A DNA stretch of 19,924 nucleotides from Polyangiaceae bacterium (GTDB lineage Bacteria; Myxococcota_A; Polyangia; Polyangiales; Polyangiaceae). The stretch spans positions 1-19,924 of the forward strand of contig JANRKO010000024.1 in assembly GCA_033763455.1 (NCBI GenBank), read 5' to 3'. Each line of letters begins with the position of its first letter. The first letter of the stretch is position 1. Positions 14,251 to 19,924 of this stretch are shown piece after piece. The translations under genes and the position numbers were made by a program. Under the pieces are notes generated by a model. The model saw nothing but the letters and a program-made list of their open reading frames with translations. It was not told the DNA's origin and searched no databases.

Positions 14251-16731
14251 ATGCCAGTTGCGCAAGAAGGGTTCCTTACCGCCTCCGACCTTGGGCTCGA
14301 CAAAGACTCACTCAAGCGCTCGATCGCCCACCACATCGAATACACACGAGTCGCCGACGAGCGCACAGCCACAATGCTCGACTTCTATTGGGCCGTAGCG
14401 AGAGTGGTGCGTGACCGGATGGTGGATCTTTGGAATAAGCGCCAACACCAACCAGAGCAAGTAAGAGAACGCCGCGTCTACTACCTTTCGCTCGAATTTT
14501 TGCTCGGTCGTTTGCTGGAGAACAATCTCCTTAATCTGCAGCTGTATGAACCGATGGCCGAGGCCCTGGGGGAGCTCGGTTACGATATTGCCGACATTCT
14601 TCGACAAGAGGATGACGCCGGCCTAGGCAACGGCGGCTTGGGGCGCCTCGCCGCATGCTTCTTGGACTCCATGGCAACCCTAGGGATTGCTGGCACCGGC
14701 TACGGAATCCGCTACGAATACGGCATATTTAGGCAGGAAATCTCAGACGGAGCACAGGTTGAACGCGCTGATAACTGGTTGCGCTACGGCAACCCTTGGG
14801 AAGTGGAGAAGCCGTCGCCGATTTTTGGAGTACGTTTCGGCGGCAGCGTAAAACGGGCAATTTCGAGCTCGGGGCGCACTCACTTCGAATGGGAAAGCTC
14901 CGACCTGGTCATGGCAATGGCACATGACATATTCATCCCTGGCTACCAAAATGGCATCGTGAACAGGCTGCGCCTCTGGTCTGCTAAGGCAACGCGCGAG
15001 TTTAGCTTCGCCGATTTCAACCGCGGAGATTACCTGCAATCTTTGTACGACAAGAACGCGACCGAGAACATCTCACGGGTGCTCTATCCGAATGACATGG
15101 TCGATCAAGGCCGTGAGCTCCGATTCAAGCAGGAATATTTCTTGGTATCGGCCACCCTGCAAGATGTCATTGCTCGGCACTTGGCCGAATTTGAAAACCT
15201 GGAAAACCTCCACGAAAAGGCCATATTTCAGCTCAATGACACCCATCCGGTGATCGCCATCGCCGAGCTCCTGCGCATCCTCTTGGACGAGCACCATCTC
15301 GGTTGGGAGGCTGCCTATTTCATTGTGACAGGGACATTCGCGTACACCAATCATACCGTGATGCCCGAAGCACTGGAGCACTGGGAGGTTGGCCTTGTCG
15401 AACGCCTCCTGCCCCGCCACCAGATGCTCATCTACGAGATCAATCGACGATTCTTGCAGGAGGTGTCGTCACGTTACCCCGGCGACACTGAGAGATTGCG
15501 CCGAATGTCGTTGATTGATGAAGCGTCGCCCCGACGCGTGCGTATGGCACACTTGGCCCTAGTGGCGAGCTCGGCCGTGAACGGCGTTTCCAAGCTGCAC
15601 ACGCAAATCATCACGCAAAGGCTATTTCGAGATTTCGCCGAGTGGTCGCCCGAAAAGTTCAACAATAAGACGAACGGGATTACCCCGCGGCGCTGGCTCT
15701 TGGGTGCGAATCCCAAGCTCTCACAGCTCATCAGCGCACACATTGGGAAGGAGTGGGTCACCGATCTAGAAGAGCTTAGCCGGCTTGCGCCTCTCGCACG
15801 AAATTCAGACTTTCAGGCGGCATGGCAGCGCGTAAAGCGGGGCAATAAGGAGCTCCTCACGCGACATCTGCGCTCGCTCACTGGCACAACGCTCGATCCA
15901 GAGAGCATGTTTGACGTCCAGGTAAAACGGCTCCACGAATACAAGCGTCAGCTTCTCAACATTCTCCAAGTAGTCGCTCATTATCACGACATACTGCGCG
16001 GCCGCCCAAGTGGCCCTCCTCGCACTTTCCTCTTCGCGGGCAAAGCGGCTCCAGGTTACATAGCCGCCAAATTGATCATTGAATTGATTACGGGGGTGGC
16101 ACGCACGATCGAACTTGATCCAAAGGTTAGCGCGCTGCTCCGCGTGGTGTTTGTGCCCGACTACAACGTCTCACTCGCTGAAAAACTGGTCGTAGCCGCA
16201 GATGTCTCGGAGCAAATTTCGTTGGCCGGCACCGAAGCTTCGGGAACTAGCAACATGAAGTTTGCTCTGAATGGCGCGCTCACTCTAGGCACGCTCGACG
16301 GCGCGAACATCGAAATCCTGGAAGCGGTGGGGCACGAGAATATGTTCATCTTTGGTCTCACCGCACACGAGGTGGAAGCTCGCCGGCAACAAGGCTACCG
16401 CCCGGAAGACATCTGGCATACAGACGCCGAACTCACCGAGGTACTCGACGCGATCGAAACAGGGGCATTTTCCCGGGGTGATCGCGAAAAATTTAGACCG
16501 CTCGTGCGAGACCTGCGCACACAAGATCCGTACTTTGTGTGCGCTGATTTTCGGAGCTACCGTGAGTGCCAGAAGCGTGTTGGTGAGGCCTACGCCGATC
16601 AGGATCGCTGGGTTACCCAATCCATTATGAACAGCGCCCACATGGGCCCCTTCTCAAGCGACCGGGTGATCGCCGAATATGCGCGGGATATCTGGCGCGT
16701 GGGGGACGGAACTCGAAGACGCGCTACTTAG
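14251..16731 (+). CDS. glgP: Glycogen/alpha-glucan phosphorylase
   Basis: YYLSLEFLLGR, GLGNGGLGRLAACFLDS, QLNDTHP, KRLHEYKRQ and the PLP-lysine motif EASGTSNMKF. Start placed at ATG 14251, after the upstream gene ends. Confidence 0.97.
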   Translation: MPVAQEGFLTASDLGLDKDSLKRSIAHHIEYTRVADERTATMLDFYWAVARVVRDRMVDLWNKRQHQPEQVRERRVYYLSLEFLLGRLLENNLLNLQLYEPMAEALGELGYDIADILRQEDDAGLGNGGLGRLAACFLDSMATLGIAGTGYGIRYEYGIFRQEISDGAQVERADNWLRYGNPWEVEKPSPIFGVRFGGSVKRAISSSGRTHFEWESSDLVMAMAHDIFIPGYQNGIVNRLRLWSAKATREFSFADFNRGDYLQSLYDKNATENISRVLYPNDMVDQGRELRFKQEYFLVSATLQDVIARHLAEFENLENLHEKAIFQLNDTHPVIAIAELLRILLDEHHLGWEAAYFIVTGTFAYTNHTVMPEALEHWEVGLVERLLPRHQMLIYEINRRFLQEVSSRYPGDTERLRRMSLIDEASPRRVRMAHLALVASSAVNGVSKLHTQIITQRLFRDFAEWSPEKFNNKTNGITPRRWLLGANPKLSQLISAHIGKEWVTDLEELSRLAPLARNSDFQAAWQRVKRGNKELLTRHLRSLTGTTLDPESMFDVQVKRLHEYKRQLLNILQVVAHYHDILRGRPSGPPRTFLFAGKAAPGYIAAKLIIELITGVARTIELDPKVSALLRVVFVPDYNVSLAEKLVVAADVSEQISLAGTEASGTSNMKFALNGALTLGTLDGANIEILEAVGHENMFIFGLTAHEVEARRQQGYRPEDIWHTDAELTEVLDAIETGAFSRGDREKFRPLVRDLRTQDPYFVCADFRSYRECQKRVGEAYADQDRWVTQSIMNSAHMGPFSSDRVIAEYARDIWRVGDGTRRRAT

Positions 16732-17365
16732 TGCGCTGGATGACGTGAAAGCCGAATGGACTCTCTACAACCTCCGAGTATTGTCCAACCTTCAAAGCGA
16801 AAGCTGGCTCCGCAATGGCACGCATGGCGGTCTCCCGATCCAGCACGCCGAGCACTCCCTTTCGCGATCTCACGTCTGCGCTATCCGTATAAGCCAACAC
16901 TACGCTCTCAAAGGCTTCCCCTTTCTTGAGCTTTTCTAGGGCTTGCTGCGCGAGGCCAAAAGCTTCCTCTTTGGGACGGGTTACCGATGCTACGGCGTGC
17001 CACGAACCGCGGTATTGTACGAGAACGTGGCGAGCTTCGATGGTCTTTGGGCCGCTTGGGTCGAGCGGAACCCCGCGCGCCAACAGGTGCGTTGGAAACT
17101 CCGGGGGAAGCGCGTCGGCAGGCGCTGGCTCGGCGGCAGCCGCTTGACCTCCACGCAATTCCCCCTGTGGAGGGACTGCCTCGACGGATCCCTTAGATTT
17201 CGCCAAACCGCCGAGCGGCAGCCCGCCCAATCCTCCTACCAACCCCAGAACCAAAAGGCTCAAGAGGACCAACCAGGGCGCCCACTCCGAAATGCCACCT
17301 TTTGTCACGCTGGCCTGCGCTTGAATGGGCGACGGTGCTGTCACGGAAGTATCAGTGTTGGTCAT
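16724..17365 (-). CDS. Parvulin (PpiC-type) peptidyl-prolyl isomerase with N-terminal membrane anchor
   Basis: Hydrophobic segment WLVLLSLLVLGLVGGL. Parvulin motifs ARHVLV, G.LG, AFALKVGQYSEVVESPFGFHVI. AAGGA upstream of the start. Confidence 0.9.
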   Translation of the reverse strand: MTNTDTSVTAPSPIQAQASVTKGGISEWAPWLVLLSLLVLGLVGGLGGLPLGGLAKSKGSVEAVPPQGELRGGQAAAAEPAPADALPPEFPTHLLARGVPLDPSGPKTIEARHVLVQYRGSWHAVASVTRPKEEAFGLAQQALEKLKKGEAFESVVLAYTDSADVRSRKGVLGVLDRETAMRAIAEPAFALKVGQYSEVVESPFGFHVIQRTK

Positions 17366-17420
17366 GGGTAGTCCTTTGTGGAAACGGATATATACGCTTT
17401 TAGATTAACGCTTTGAGGTA

Positions 17421-18548
17421 TCAGCCATGGGCTCGCCAGGTGTTTCCGACTTCTCTTGGCGTGCAAGAATGCCAAGCCGGACCGCCCGGAACCGGTAACT
17501 TGGGGCTCCTCTTGGAGGAGAGTTCGCGCCAATCGCTGAGTTTCTCCGAAGCTGCCAACGAGCGTATCCACGTGAACCCCACGGGCTCGGAACCGTGCTG
17601 GCGGACTTCACGCGTACGTACGAAGGATTGGATCGCCGCTCGGAGCTCCAGGATTGGCGAGTCAGTCGCCTTGGCGCAGCTTCGCACTTCGATGAGCTGC
17701 GACAGATCTTCGAGCATCGAAAGGAGCAGGCTCACAGAGAGCAGCCAATGAACCTTCGAGATGGCGAAGGCTCCAAGCTCTGGTAAGTGCTCTCGGCTAT
17801 GCTCGCAGCAGACTACATGAACCTCTTCGTCCGCTCCCCTTGTTCGCATGGTGTCGGTTAGGAAGTCAGCGAGGTGCTGGGAGGAACACCCACCCGTGGA
17901 GGTGCCCTGCAAGAGTTCGTAGGCTCGAAGGAAACTAGGAGGATTGCTGCGCTGAACCTTCATGCGCTTAGCCGCCCCGGGGGCCTTGTGCGAGACACGC
18001 GACGCTTCTGGGGAGGGCGCCTCACCCACGCTCAGCGCTACGATACAATGCGGTGGGGTTATGAAGACCCCACACACTTCGAGCTCTGCGCCCACGCGCC
18101 TAAACTGATGCTGAATTGCAGTAAGGCTCAGATTTCCCTCCGCAACGCGAGATTCCTCCCACACTCTTCGAACCTGGTATTCGCTTGCGCCTACAGCGTC
18201 GGCGACCCTGCGAATGCTCCACCGCGTCGCACCCGGAGGAACCTCTTCGCGCGTGGCGCGCAGGATGGCCTCGCGTCGCTCCTCGGTAATCTTTCGAGGC
18301 TGTCCCGGACGAGGCAAATCACACAGCCCCTCGATACCAAGCGCTCGGAACCGCTTCCGCCACTTGTAGACGGTGAGGGGAACCACACTCAGCTCAAGGC
18401 TGATCTCCTCAGCAGTGCGACCCTCGGCTGAAAGCAGCACGATACGCGCCCGCTCCGCCAGGGAGGCTGAGTTGCCCACTGAGGCCAAATGCAGAAGCTC
18501 TGCCCGAAGCCCTGGCGGTAATAACCATTCGCGCGTCGATCTAACCAT
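17421..18548 (-). CDS. IS630-transposase-derived HTH protein with degenerate DDE domain
   Basis: IS630-type N-terminus ERARIVLLSAEG...TVYKWRKRF...GIEGLCDLPRPGQPRKIT...TRWSIRRVADAVG. The C-terminal half is colinear with the IS630 DDE domain but lacks the catalytic acidic residues. Start placed at ATG 18548; the ORF extends to 18605. Confidence 0.8.
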   Translation of the reverse strand: MVRSTREWLLPPGLRAELLHLASVGNSASLAERARIVLLSAEGRTAEEISLELSVVPLTVYKWRKRFRALGIEGLCDLPRPGQPRKITEERREAILRATREEVPPGATRWSIRRVADAVGASEYQVRRVWEESRVAEGNLSLTAIQHQFRRVGAELEVCGVFITPPHCIVALSVGEAPSPEASRVSHKAPGAAKRMKVQRSNPPSFLRAYELLQGTSTGGCSSQHLADFLTDTMRTRGADEEVHVVCCEHSREHLPELGAFAISKVHWLLSVSLLLSMLEDLSQLIEVRSCAKATDSPILELRAAIQSFVRTREVRQHGSEPVGFTWIRSLAASEKLSDWRELSSKRSPKLPVPGGPAWHSCTPREVGNTWRAHG

Positions 18549-18682
18549 CTTATCAGCCAAGTTGCAGAGTCGGATGCTGAAGCAGGAGCAATCCTGCGCT
18601 CCCACGCGGCGGACTGTATCTGCAATACCTCCCGCTGCACGTTACGTTTTCCCGACGAATCGAGAGATTTGAGAAGAAGCCG

Positions 18683-18700
18683 TGACGAATATGACGAATA
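18683..18700. repeat. Tandem 9-bp direct repeat TGACGAATA x2 (third GACGAAT core at 18654-18660)
   Basis: Read directly from the sequence in the divergent intergenic region. Confidence 0.6.
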
Positions 18701-19041
18701 GGGCATCTGCGCTGCCCGAGTTCTATACGAACTAATCGCTGACATTCACGACCACTCAGGAACCGCGCATTGACTGGATCACGAAAGCAGAGCAACCCAA
18801 ACGGGCAGCCTACTAGGCGATTGGCGCAACGAGATCCCGCGCACACACACCCCGTAGATAGCGCGCACCAACGTTTACTCACGCGCCGCATCGCCATAGT
18901 TCATGACGTTAAAAAGCATGGATTAGACGTGTTCAGCGCACGCGCGGCGCCTCGTACACGTCGACAACCGGGCGCGCAATTGTAACACCCAACTTTTGCA
19001 TCGCAGGTTATAGAGCTCGCGCTGCTATTAGGTTTGCAGCC

Positions 19042-19046
19042 GGAGG
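19042..19046 (+). promoter_or_regulatory. Probable Shine-Dalgarno site
   Basis: GGAGG 11 nt before the ATG at 19058. Confidence 0.55.
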
Positions 19047-19057
19047 TTTGATTGGAC

Positions 19058-19924
19058 ATGAAAACAACTACAGCAATTACGATGTTTCTTGCGGTCGCGG
19101 CTGGCACTGCCAGCGCCGGCGCCGCAATCACACTCAGCGGTTCGGACACACTCGAAACAATGACCAAGCGCATTCTCGCCACCTGTCCCGCCAGCATCGG
19201 GTCGGTTGCCGGGATCAGCTACGGCGGTGGCGGCACGACCACAGGTGAAAACGCGATGAAAGCGGGAACCCAACAGGTTTCGCCGATGTCGCGGGCCCTC
19301 AACCCTGGCAACACCTGCGGCCCCAACCAGGCGAAAGCCGAAAATCTTGAAATCGCCGGCGATGGACTGGCTATTTTGACCTCACCTGCCGCTTCAAACC
19401 AGTGTCAGGGAACCGTCGCCACGGGCGGCTTGGCTAAGAACACAACTGTCGCGGTGGACGGCGGTGGAAGCTACACGTTTACTAGCTGGAGGGACGTCCT
19501 GCGCACTCTGTTCGCTGGCCTCGACAACACCAAGGCCAACACGCTCGCGGCACGCGACTGCAGCAGCAACGTCCGCAAATCCCTCCAGAAGAGCTGGGCC
19601 AAGCTGTTTCAGGCTAGCTGCGGAGCAACTCCCTGCACCGAGCTCAAGCACATCTGGCGCCGAGGCGATCTCTCCGGTACCACCGACACGTTCGTCAGCC
19701 TTGTCGGCTTGCCGAACCCGGTGCGAGTAGGTCCCAACGTCACCCAAACCCCGTTCTGCGGCGGCCTCGACTATGAAGACAACGATCCGATCCGCATCCC
19801 CTGCGACGCCAACGACGACGTGTGCGGCGCTGACGGCACGCTCGGCCTCTTGCAGACGATTTTCGTTCCTGAGAGCCTCACGACCGACGTCGCTTATCCT
19901 CTGACCGCGTGCGATCCGGGCGTT
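19058..19924 (+). CDS. Secreted Cys-rich PstS-like (phosphate-binding protein fold) protein, 3'-partial
   Basis: Manually translated, 289 open codons to the window edge: MKTTTAITMFLAVAAGTASAGAA signal peptide, then ITLSGSDT, YGGGGTTTG, PMSR, DGLAI and WRRGDLSGTTDTF. Not in the ORF track because no stop is reached. Confidence 0.8.
   Translation, partial: MKTTTAITMFLAVAAGTASAGAAITLSGSDTLETMTKRILATCPASIGSVAGISYGGGGTTTGENAMKAGTQQVSPMSRALNPGNTCGPNQAKAENLEIAGDGLAILTSPAASNQCQGTVATGGLAKNTTVAVDGGGSYTFTSWRDVLRTLFAGLDNTKANTLAARDCSSNVRKSLQKSWAKLFQASCGATPCTELKHIWRRGDLSGTTDTFVSLVGLPNPVRVGPNVTQTPFCGGLDYEDNDPIRIPCDANDDVCGADGTLGLLQTIFVPESLTTDVAYPLTACDPGV

Follow-up and report, generated by a model that had tools for sequence, protein, structure and literature searches.

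The window analysed here, a stretch of 19,924 nucleotides from a Polyangiaceae bacterium (assembly GCA_033763455.1, contig JANRKO010000024.1), carries on its minus strand a gene for a protein of 375 residues, P0001, which is related by alignment to the transposases of the insertion sequence (IS) family IS630. In our view P0001 is probably a domesticated IS630-family transposase, catalytically dead, which now serves its host as a sequence-specific DNA-binding protein and likely as a local regulator. The evidence is drawn from the alignment of the protein with active transposases, from the immobility of the gene, from its orthologues and their synteny, and from the pattern of substitutions between lineages.

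The Gene and Its Domain Make-Up

The gene and the parts of its product are located as follows.

17421–18548, minus strand: coding sequence (CDS) of the dead IS630-derived protein P0001 (375 amino acids plus stop), taken from the list of open reading frames (ORFs), with the same Met in the orthologues.

18144–18521, minus strand: bipartite (paired-like) helix-turn-helix (HTH) DNA-binding domain, residues 10–135, from Pfam, AlphaFold2 (AF2) models and fold matches.

17559–18143, minus strand: degenerate DDE_3-derived core, residues 136–330, from hhalign, a core profile and protein language-model (ESM) features.

17424–17558, minus strand: C-terminal tail, residues 331–375, from alignments, modelled as disordered.

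Three lineages are referred to throughout: A is G000, the genome of P0001, B is G001, and C comprises G003 and two metagenome contigs. The frame of P0001 is uninterrupted from the ATG at 18548 to the stop at 17421–17423. A GTG 19 codons upstream is a possible alternative start; the start Met is common to all three lineages, and the lineage C frame opens only five codons before it. Pfam recognised in P0001 only HTH_32, HTH_23, HTH_29 and HTH_28, all at residues 28–130 (E-values of 4.7e-16, 3.8e-14 and 6.2e-14 for the first three), which, together with the frame, confirms the IS630-type HTH N-terminus and the 375-residue open frame described in the initial annotation. DDE_3 (PF13358) was not found by Pfam in P0001 at E ≤ 1, nor in the related proteins P0003 and P0004 at E ≤ 0.01. 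The NCBIfam model of IS630 (NF033545) scored 74.6 bits on P0001, below its cut-off of 100, and aligned with residues 32–132 only. The last ~35–45 residues, the tail, run past the C-termini of IS630 transposases and contain two motifs that are invariant in the dead proteins, S338-D339-W340 (SDW) and W359-H360-S361-C362 (WHSC).

A 185-residue antisense ORF at 17874–18431 on the plus strand was considered as a gene and set aside: its conservation in G001 is weak (42% over 86 amino acids), and it coincides with the HTH coding region, of which it is most simply the shadow.

Descent from IS630 Transposases

A word-indexed protein search with P0001 returned 44 proteins. P0002 is 97% identical to the query, and P0003 and P0004 are 43–44% identical across its full length and are also devoid of DDE_3. 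The remaining matches are ordinary IS630 transposases, of which the closest are 30–35% identical over 80–92% of the query, so the similarity reaches well into the catalytic domain. In a MAFFT alignment with nine active transposases the C-terminal part of P0001 is colinear with the IS630 DDE domains, and comparison of the four dead proteins with 32 IS630 transposases by hhalign gave a probability of 100 and an E-value of 3.1e-47 over 325 aligned columns, again colinear. A profile of the C-terminal part, run against 1.84 billion representative sequences, recovered two strong clusters only (P0004 and P0002) and then DDE_3 transposases from E 4e-12 down; the gene family amounts to these two 50%-identity clusters among the representatives, and only P0004 and P0002 match to the end of the profile. 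When ESM features of residues 136–375 were compared, the nearest clusters were those of DDE_3 (0.90–0.91), with 30 of 30 matches in the same family set.

The motif ELRAAIQSF...FTW of P0001 aligns with ELRxxIRRYI...PFVW of IS630 in both MAFFT and hhalign, in agreement with the initial description of a catalytic domain that is still colinear with IS630 and keeps its C-terminal motif. Many further invariant residues of the IS630 core are lost, including the DEKTQIQALDRTQ block, the THK of DNSSTHK, and the W and N of SWLN. By these alignment and profile comparisons P0001 shares ancestry with IS630, and the residues beyond the HTH pair make up an IS630 DDE domain that has degenerated but is still colinear. 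As a functional member of the family it falls short in the family cut-off, the catalytic triad, the inverted repeats (IRs) and mobility, and it retains the HTH pair of IS630.

Loss of the Catalytic Residues

The IS630 family uses a DDE (Asp-Asp-Glu) triad with ~35 residues between the last two acidic residues, and the spacing from D258 to E294 in the transposase P0005 agrees with this figure. The corresponding positions in P0001 are given below, D1 and D2 being the first and second Asp.

18024–18026, minus strand: G175 at D1 (Gly in lineage B, Glu in lineage C), from MAFFT and hhalign.

17805–17807, minus strand: C248 at D2 (Ser in lineages B and C), from MAFFT; hhalign puts H250 there.

17709–17711, minus strand: E280, the retained catalytic Glu position, from both alignments.

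The D1 motif SVDEK of IS630 aligns with G175. The D2 motif ILDNSS falls on C248 in the MAFFT alignment and on H250 in that of hhalign, and neither places an Asp there. E280 corresponds to the Glu of SWLNxVE and stands 13 residues past a conserved His, the same spacing that the transposases have; all four dead proteins carry this Glu, and across 39 sequences it scarcely varies. The alignments thus show that two of the three catalytic residues, D1 and D2, have been lost in P0001. The initial annotation had all three DDE residues replaced, which holds for D1 and D2 and fails for the Glu. Its substitution of E to S at the third site arose from W268 being wrongly matched to the W of SWLN, seven residues off. 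Its suggestion of a metal or ligand site at the Cys/His-rich CCEH is likewise not sustained, as CCEH is lineage-specific and the orthologues have G--SS or C--SS. One to three residues beyond D2 lie acidic residues, namely E249 in lineage A, D in lineage B and EE in lineage C, at offsets that differ, and lineage B, with SVGTA, has no carboxylate at or beside D1. An intact alternative acidic triad, the possibility raised at the outset against a dead enzyme, was sought in the alignments of the dead proteins and none that is conserved was found.

Immobility

Among 18 inverted-repeat pairs, none has its arms in 17366–17423 and 18549–19051, that is, flanking the ORF, and no terminal IRs were found flanking the orthologues in lineages B and C; the lack of paired terminal IRs reported initially is therefore confirmed in all three lineages. 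True IS630 copies in related genomes, which served as positive controls, carry IRs of 18–31 nt adjoining the ORF ends. The P0001 gene is present once in the 6.56-Mb genome G000, and the multiple near-identical copies with IRs that would mark a mobile element did not appear. Taken together, these results show that the gene is immobile.

In a sister genus, a complete IS630-family element of ~1.2 kb was observed (L004, contig C713 of G004, positions 105–1302), with 31-nt terminal IRs that are 87% complementary.

Orthologues and Synteny

A survey of 41 related genomes turned up orthologues, complete or partial, in the same genus only. G001 encodes an orthologue of 378 amino acids, G003 carries a partial one cut at the contig start, and the full lineage C gene is found on two metagenome contigs whose DNA is 96.5% identical to the G003 contig. 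A scan of genome contigs returned the same two lineages, B and C, as Polyangiales metagenome-assembled genomes (MAGs). The full-length orthologues are 43–52% identical and belong to three species-level Polyangiales lineages. The genes on either side of the dead IS630 gene in the window are as follows.

16724–17365, minus strand: membrane-anchored parvulin-type peptidyl-prolyl isomerase, 213 amino acids, downstream and co-directional (Pfam Rotamase and Rotamase_3), syntenic in B and C.

19058–19924, plus strand: secreted protein like a periplasmic binding protein (PBP-like, PstS-like), divergent and cut by the window end (PBP_like_2 at E 4e-4, below the cut-off; ribosome-binding site (RBS) and ATG at 19058), syntenic in B and C.

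The gene order in A, B and C is the same, with the divergent PBP-like gene upstream, the dead IS630 gene in the middle and the membrane parvulin gene after it, and the neighbourhoods diverge beyond the parvulin gene. The parvulin start lies 55–60 nt past the stop of the dead IS630 gene across the lineages (55 nt in lineage A). Orthology and synteny in three lineages are thereby shown, and the syntenic orthologues for which the initial annotation had proposed to search do exist. An empty site was not identified in other genera, whose parvulin homologues are 36–51% identical and lack shared neighbours.

The PBP-like gene is present in two tandem copies in G001. G000 has several PBP-like paralogues, of which pieces 60–78% identical lie on contigs C25 and C60, one of them cut by the contig end; repeats of these paralogues probably broke the G000 assembly at the window end. 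At the left end of the window, positions 132–1466 of the plus strand hold a 445-residue ORF with DDE_Tnp_1 and DUF772, an IS4/IS5-type transposase of an apparently ordinary IS. The rest of the window is housekeeping in nature: SecA, RecQ, a GreA-like factor, a PP-loop protein, a 2-hydroxyacid dehydrogenase and glycogen phosphorylase.

Selection on the Dead Protein

Between lineages, the synonymous divergence (dS) obtained by the Nei–Gojobori method (NG86) is saturated (>1.7 or undefined), and the nonsynonymous divergence (dN) is 0.18–0.31 in the HTH domain and 0.63–0.92 in the core. Protein identity is 64–73% in the HTH domain and 30–43% in the core, and the core segments alone find each other between lineages by blastp at E 1e-20 to 2e-42. 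In the core, codon positions 1 and 2 have an identity of 0.41–0.62 and position 3 of 0.28–0.33, against 0.27–0.28 expected by chance; the corresponding values in the HTH domain are 0.74–0.87 and 0.33–0.43, and positions 1 and 2 of the tail reach 0.47–0.67, the alignment having been made on proteins, which somewhat favours positions 1 and 2. A neutral, substitution-only simulation was run until amino-acid identity had fallen to 45%, by which point none of its 2000 frames was still open. The codon-position pattern and the simulation together point to a domesticated transposase under purifying selection. These comparisons between lineages show protein-level purifying selection on the dead IS630 gene, strongest on the double HTH. 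The initial argument, that an open frame with a kept HTH and dead catalysis implies selection for a role other than transposition, agrees with the synteny, the single copy and the substitution pattern.

In the tree, the four dead proteins group together as a single clade (100/99), whose stem measures 1.45 substitutions per site. The sister of this clade, at 100/100 with a long-branch warning, is P0047, an IS630-like HTH-domain protein of 346 amino acids from a Myxococcales MAG that has no DDE_3 match. P0047 keeps D1 (VDH) and the Glu, has lost D2 (ASS), shares the PPxC motif and has no tail; it is 33–34% identical to lineages B and C versus 25–30% in full-length matches to active IS630 copies. 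It may be a distant member of the dead IS630 family. Its source genome was not among the 400 sampled genomes of the class.

Predicted Structure

In the AF2 models, the HTH pair has a block-mean pLDDT (predicted local distance difference test) of 82–96, with dips to 67 at residues 81–90 and 55 at residues 101–110, and the pair is confident in the models of both P0001 and P0003. Its fold matches are the complex of the SETMAR DNA-binding domain (DBD) with the terminal inverted repeat (TIR), Pax paired domains and the bipartite DBD of Tc3, and the first HTH resembles sigma region 4 (Z 5.7–6.6). In P0003 the core is modelled at a pLDDT of 60–88, save for a loop at 178–188 below 50. The D2 position lies just past a strand in this model and E282 lies in a long helix after the next strand, a strand-helix order that by our reading would fit an RNase-H-like layout. 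Fold searches with the two full-length AF2 models (Foldseek against pdb; VIA-align, wide) gave no match at E ≤ 0.001; it was the HTH pair that most of the high-probability Foldseek rows, and almost every VIA-align row, covered, so that the core, 136–330, was scarcely probed. The tail is modelled as disordered.

The Upstream Spacer

The spacer between the dead IS630 gene and the PBP-like gene is 334–509 nt long and is diverged between lineages apart from conserved blocks and a 13-mer. Two features of it are of interest.

18639–18651, minus strand: exact 13-mer GAAAACGTAACGT, candidate operator or promoter element, conserved across lineages.

18960–18989, minus strand: conserved GGTGTTACAATTGCGCGC (18-mer, 18972–18989) with TTGTCGAC (18960–18967), candidate operator, in three lineages.

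The 13-mer lies upstream of the ATG of the dead IS630 gene, at a distance of 90 nt in lineage A; lineages B and C have it at 35 and 38 nt, respectively. Exact GAAAACGTAACGT occurs once in G000 and once in G001 and is absent from G002 and G003; matches with one mismatch are as frequent as those of a reversed control pattern. The RBS, CTATAACC, GGTGTTACAATTGCGCGC and TTGTCGAC stand at a fixed distance from the ATG of the PBP-like gene in the three lineages, and a 121-nt block is present at this locus only, in G000 and G001. In G001 a relative of the 18-mer also precedes the second of the two PBP-like paralogues at the locus. Two further matches with one mismatch were found, one in G002 inside a coding region and the other on contig C7 of G001. 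Rfam gave no match at E ≤ 1 in 17300–19200, and a scan for consensus promoters and terminators returned 0 sites, no sigma-70-like promoter being recognised in the spacer. None of the data sets listed as holding the locus is of RNA. The 13-mer and the 18-mer are candidate operators or promoter elements.

The 13-mer was also considered as a relic of an IR. At 35–38 nt from the ATG in B and C it occupies the place of a left IR, but it has no likeness to the IRs of three IS630 elements with which it was compared (CTAGTGTCCTGAGTCC... in L004 and L066, CTAGTGTGTCGTCC... in L068). This idea is unsupported, though not refuted.

Proposed Function and Alternatives

The history that we propose starts with an IS630 copy that would have become fixed in the ancestor of one uncultured Polyangiales genus (Myxococcota), between the PBP-like and membrane parvulin genes. 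Thereafter the copy would have shed its terminal repeats together with two catalytic carboxylates out of three, and it would have been kept as a single-copy host gene. The protein would no longer cut DNA and would bind it sequence-specifically via the paired-like HTH pair, with the degenerate RNase-H-like core as a scaffold or oligomerisation module and the new SDW/WHSC tail as an added interaction surface. Most likely it would control transcription of its own operon, which would include the parvulin gene, of the divergent PBP-like gene, or of both, with the conserved 13-mer and 18-mer of the shared spacer as putative operators. We infer the role of P0001 as a transcription factor. A local regulator is favoured on two grounds: the DNA-binding domain is the part under the strongest constraint, and the position of the gene suggests it. 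A regulator that is divergent from one neighbour and operon-like with the other is a common layout of local regulators. In its most specific form the proposal is tentative: P0001 may be a genus-specific transcription factor derived from IS630, in which the HTH pair reads GAAAACGTAACGT, the 18-mer or both, and the dead core and the tail give oligomerisation or signal input.

Several observations weigh against this picture. The locus is known from three lineages of one genus only, and in the fourth genome of that genus, G002 (94% complete, 530 contigs), neither the dead IS630 gene nor close orthologues of its two neighbours were found, so the locus may be dispensable or may be unassembled there. 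The core evolves fast, at the 30–43% identity given above. Lineage A has an extra branch of 1.06 and a deviant composition; this branch and the long stem are the pattern expected after release from catalytic constraint. The core of P0001 itself is modelled at a pLDDT of only 29–65, and the suggestion that it keeps an RNase-H-like fold draws on sequence colinearity and the P0003 model, without a fold match. The 18-mer may simply be the promoter of the PBP-like gene, given its fixed distance and its duplication with that gene. Finally, strain-level single-nucleotide polymorphisms (SNPs) on contigs of four metagenome runs comprise 7 nonsynonymous (N) and 6 synonymous (S) changes among 13 listed, with 5 further differences unlisted, and the two lineage C copies differ by 3N:1S, counts too few to test selection. 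The corresponding counts in the PBP-like neighbour are 10N:12S. The one indel seen among strains within the CDS, a deletion of 3 nt at 18091, is in frame and counts in favour of the proposal. Of the dN/dS comparison proposed in the initial annotation, the part between lineages favours selection, dN being far below saturated dS, whereas the strain-level ratios of 7:6 and 3:1 show no constraint on their own.

The alternative that survives best keeps the domestication and drops the transcription factor: the HTH pair would tether the protein for nucleoid architecture or for recruiting a partner via the tail, or the protein would act mainly by protein contacts. The core and the tail are constrained too, a feature without obvious use to a simple repressor; in addition, SDW and WHSC are invariant in the tail, and the spacer offers no recognisable sigma-70-like promoter. 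Against these stand the divergent and operon-like placement, common among local regulators, and the concentration of the strongest constraint on the DNA-binding domain, and we consider this alternative rather unlikely.

Far less probable is that P0001 still belongs to transposon biology, either as a transposase with a non-canonical acidic set or as a trans-acting inhibitor of active IS630 elements. E280 is kept, lineage C has Glu at D1, and each lineage has an acidic residue one to three positions past D2. These acidic residues are not positionally conserved, however, lineage B has no carboxylate at or next to D1, and the gene is single-copy, fixed in position and without IRs. PF13358 was detected in 0 of the 4 assembled genomes of the genus (94–95% complete), although MAGs often leave repeats unassembled, so there is no visible target or helper, and the initially suggested role of an IS630 repressor loses its object. 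A decaying, functionless IS relic whose frame is open by chance would account for the badly degraded core, the strain-level N:S of 7:6 and 3:1 that fit weak constraint and the gene's not being found in G002, but the full-length frame whose start and end region are shared by three lineages with saturated synonymous sites, the 0 of 2000 open frames under neutrality, the conserved codon positions 1 and 2 beside a position 3 at chance, and the kept synteny bring this very improbable explanation close to refuted.

Comparison with Known Systems and Significance

Compared with IS630 transposases (NF033545; HTH_23/HTH_29/HTH_32 plus DDE_3; P0005–P0021, L004, L066 and L068), P0001 shares the double HTH, is equally long and has a colinear core, and its HTH linker DLPRPGQPRK is nearly identical in them. 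Its identity is 29–34% to the closest active transposases aligned (P0005–P0021) and 20–29% to more distant ones. Unlike them, it has lost D1, D2 and most invariant core motifs and has no detected DDE_3, and its gene has no IRs, a single copy, fixed synteny and ~35–45 extra C-terminal residues.

IS630 is grouped with the Tc1/mariner superfamily, and in eukaryotes it is textbook knowledge that DDE transposases have been taken over by their hosts as DNA-binding proteins. The catalytic domain of SETMAR is still partly active, and the protein binds dispersed TIRs of Hsmar1. To our knowledge such recruitment has hardly been described from bacteria, in which the usual assumption is that dead IS copies soon decay. 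Like the eukaryotic host genes derived from Tc1/mariner, the P0001 gene has kept a paired-like HTH pair under selection while transposition was lost. The HTH pair matches the SETMAR DBD (PDB 7s03) with a Foldseek probability of 0.99–1.00 and a profile E-value of 0.0013. Unlike SETMAR, P0001 is bacterial, is not fused to another enzyme domain and keeps the whole dead core, and no relic TIR binding sites were identified for it.

Transposase domestication has been screened for in Drosophila, according to the part of the source available (PMC13548663). In prokaryotes, the accessible portions of two reports describe the TldR proteins, TnpB-like nuclease-dead repressors (PMC10705468, PMC13622181). 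As far as these portions go, TldR resembles our case in that a prokaryotic transposon-encoded nuclease has lost catalysis and been recruited to regulate neighbouring host genes, a regulation that for P0001 we infer. The same portions have TldR as RNA-guided and derived from TnpB, the accessory nuclease of the IS200/IS605 type, whereas P0001 is a DDE derivative and would read DNA by its HTH pair. Full-text literature searches, with the sources available in part, returned no report of a domesticated bacterial IS630 transposase, TldR being the nearest prokaryotic precedent.

The locus combines the features by which domestication can be recognised from sequence alone, namely a dead active site, lost ends, a single copy, synteny across species and a protein-level substitution pattern. 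Its scope is narrow, covering one uncultured genus and three lineages known from metagenome assemblies, and it offers short exact candidate operators. If the proposal is true, a regulator born from a transposase would link a membrane parvulin foldase with a periplasmic binding protein. With P0047 as a possible distant relative, IS630 would then be a recurring origin of new DNA-binding proteins in prokaryotic hosts, the part that Tc1/mariner plays in animals.

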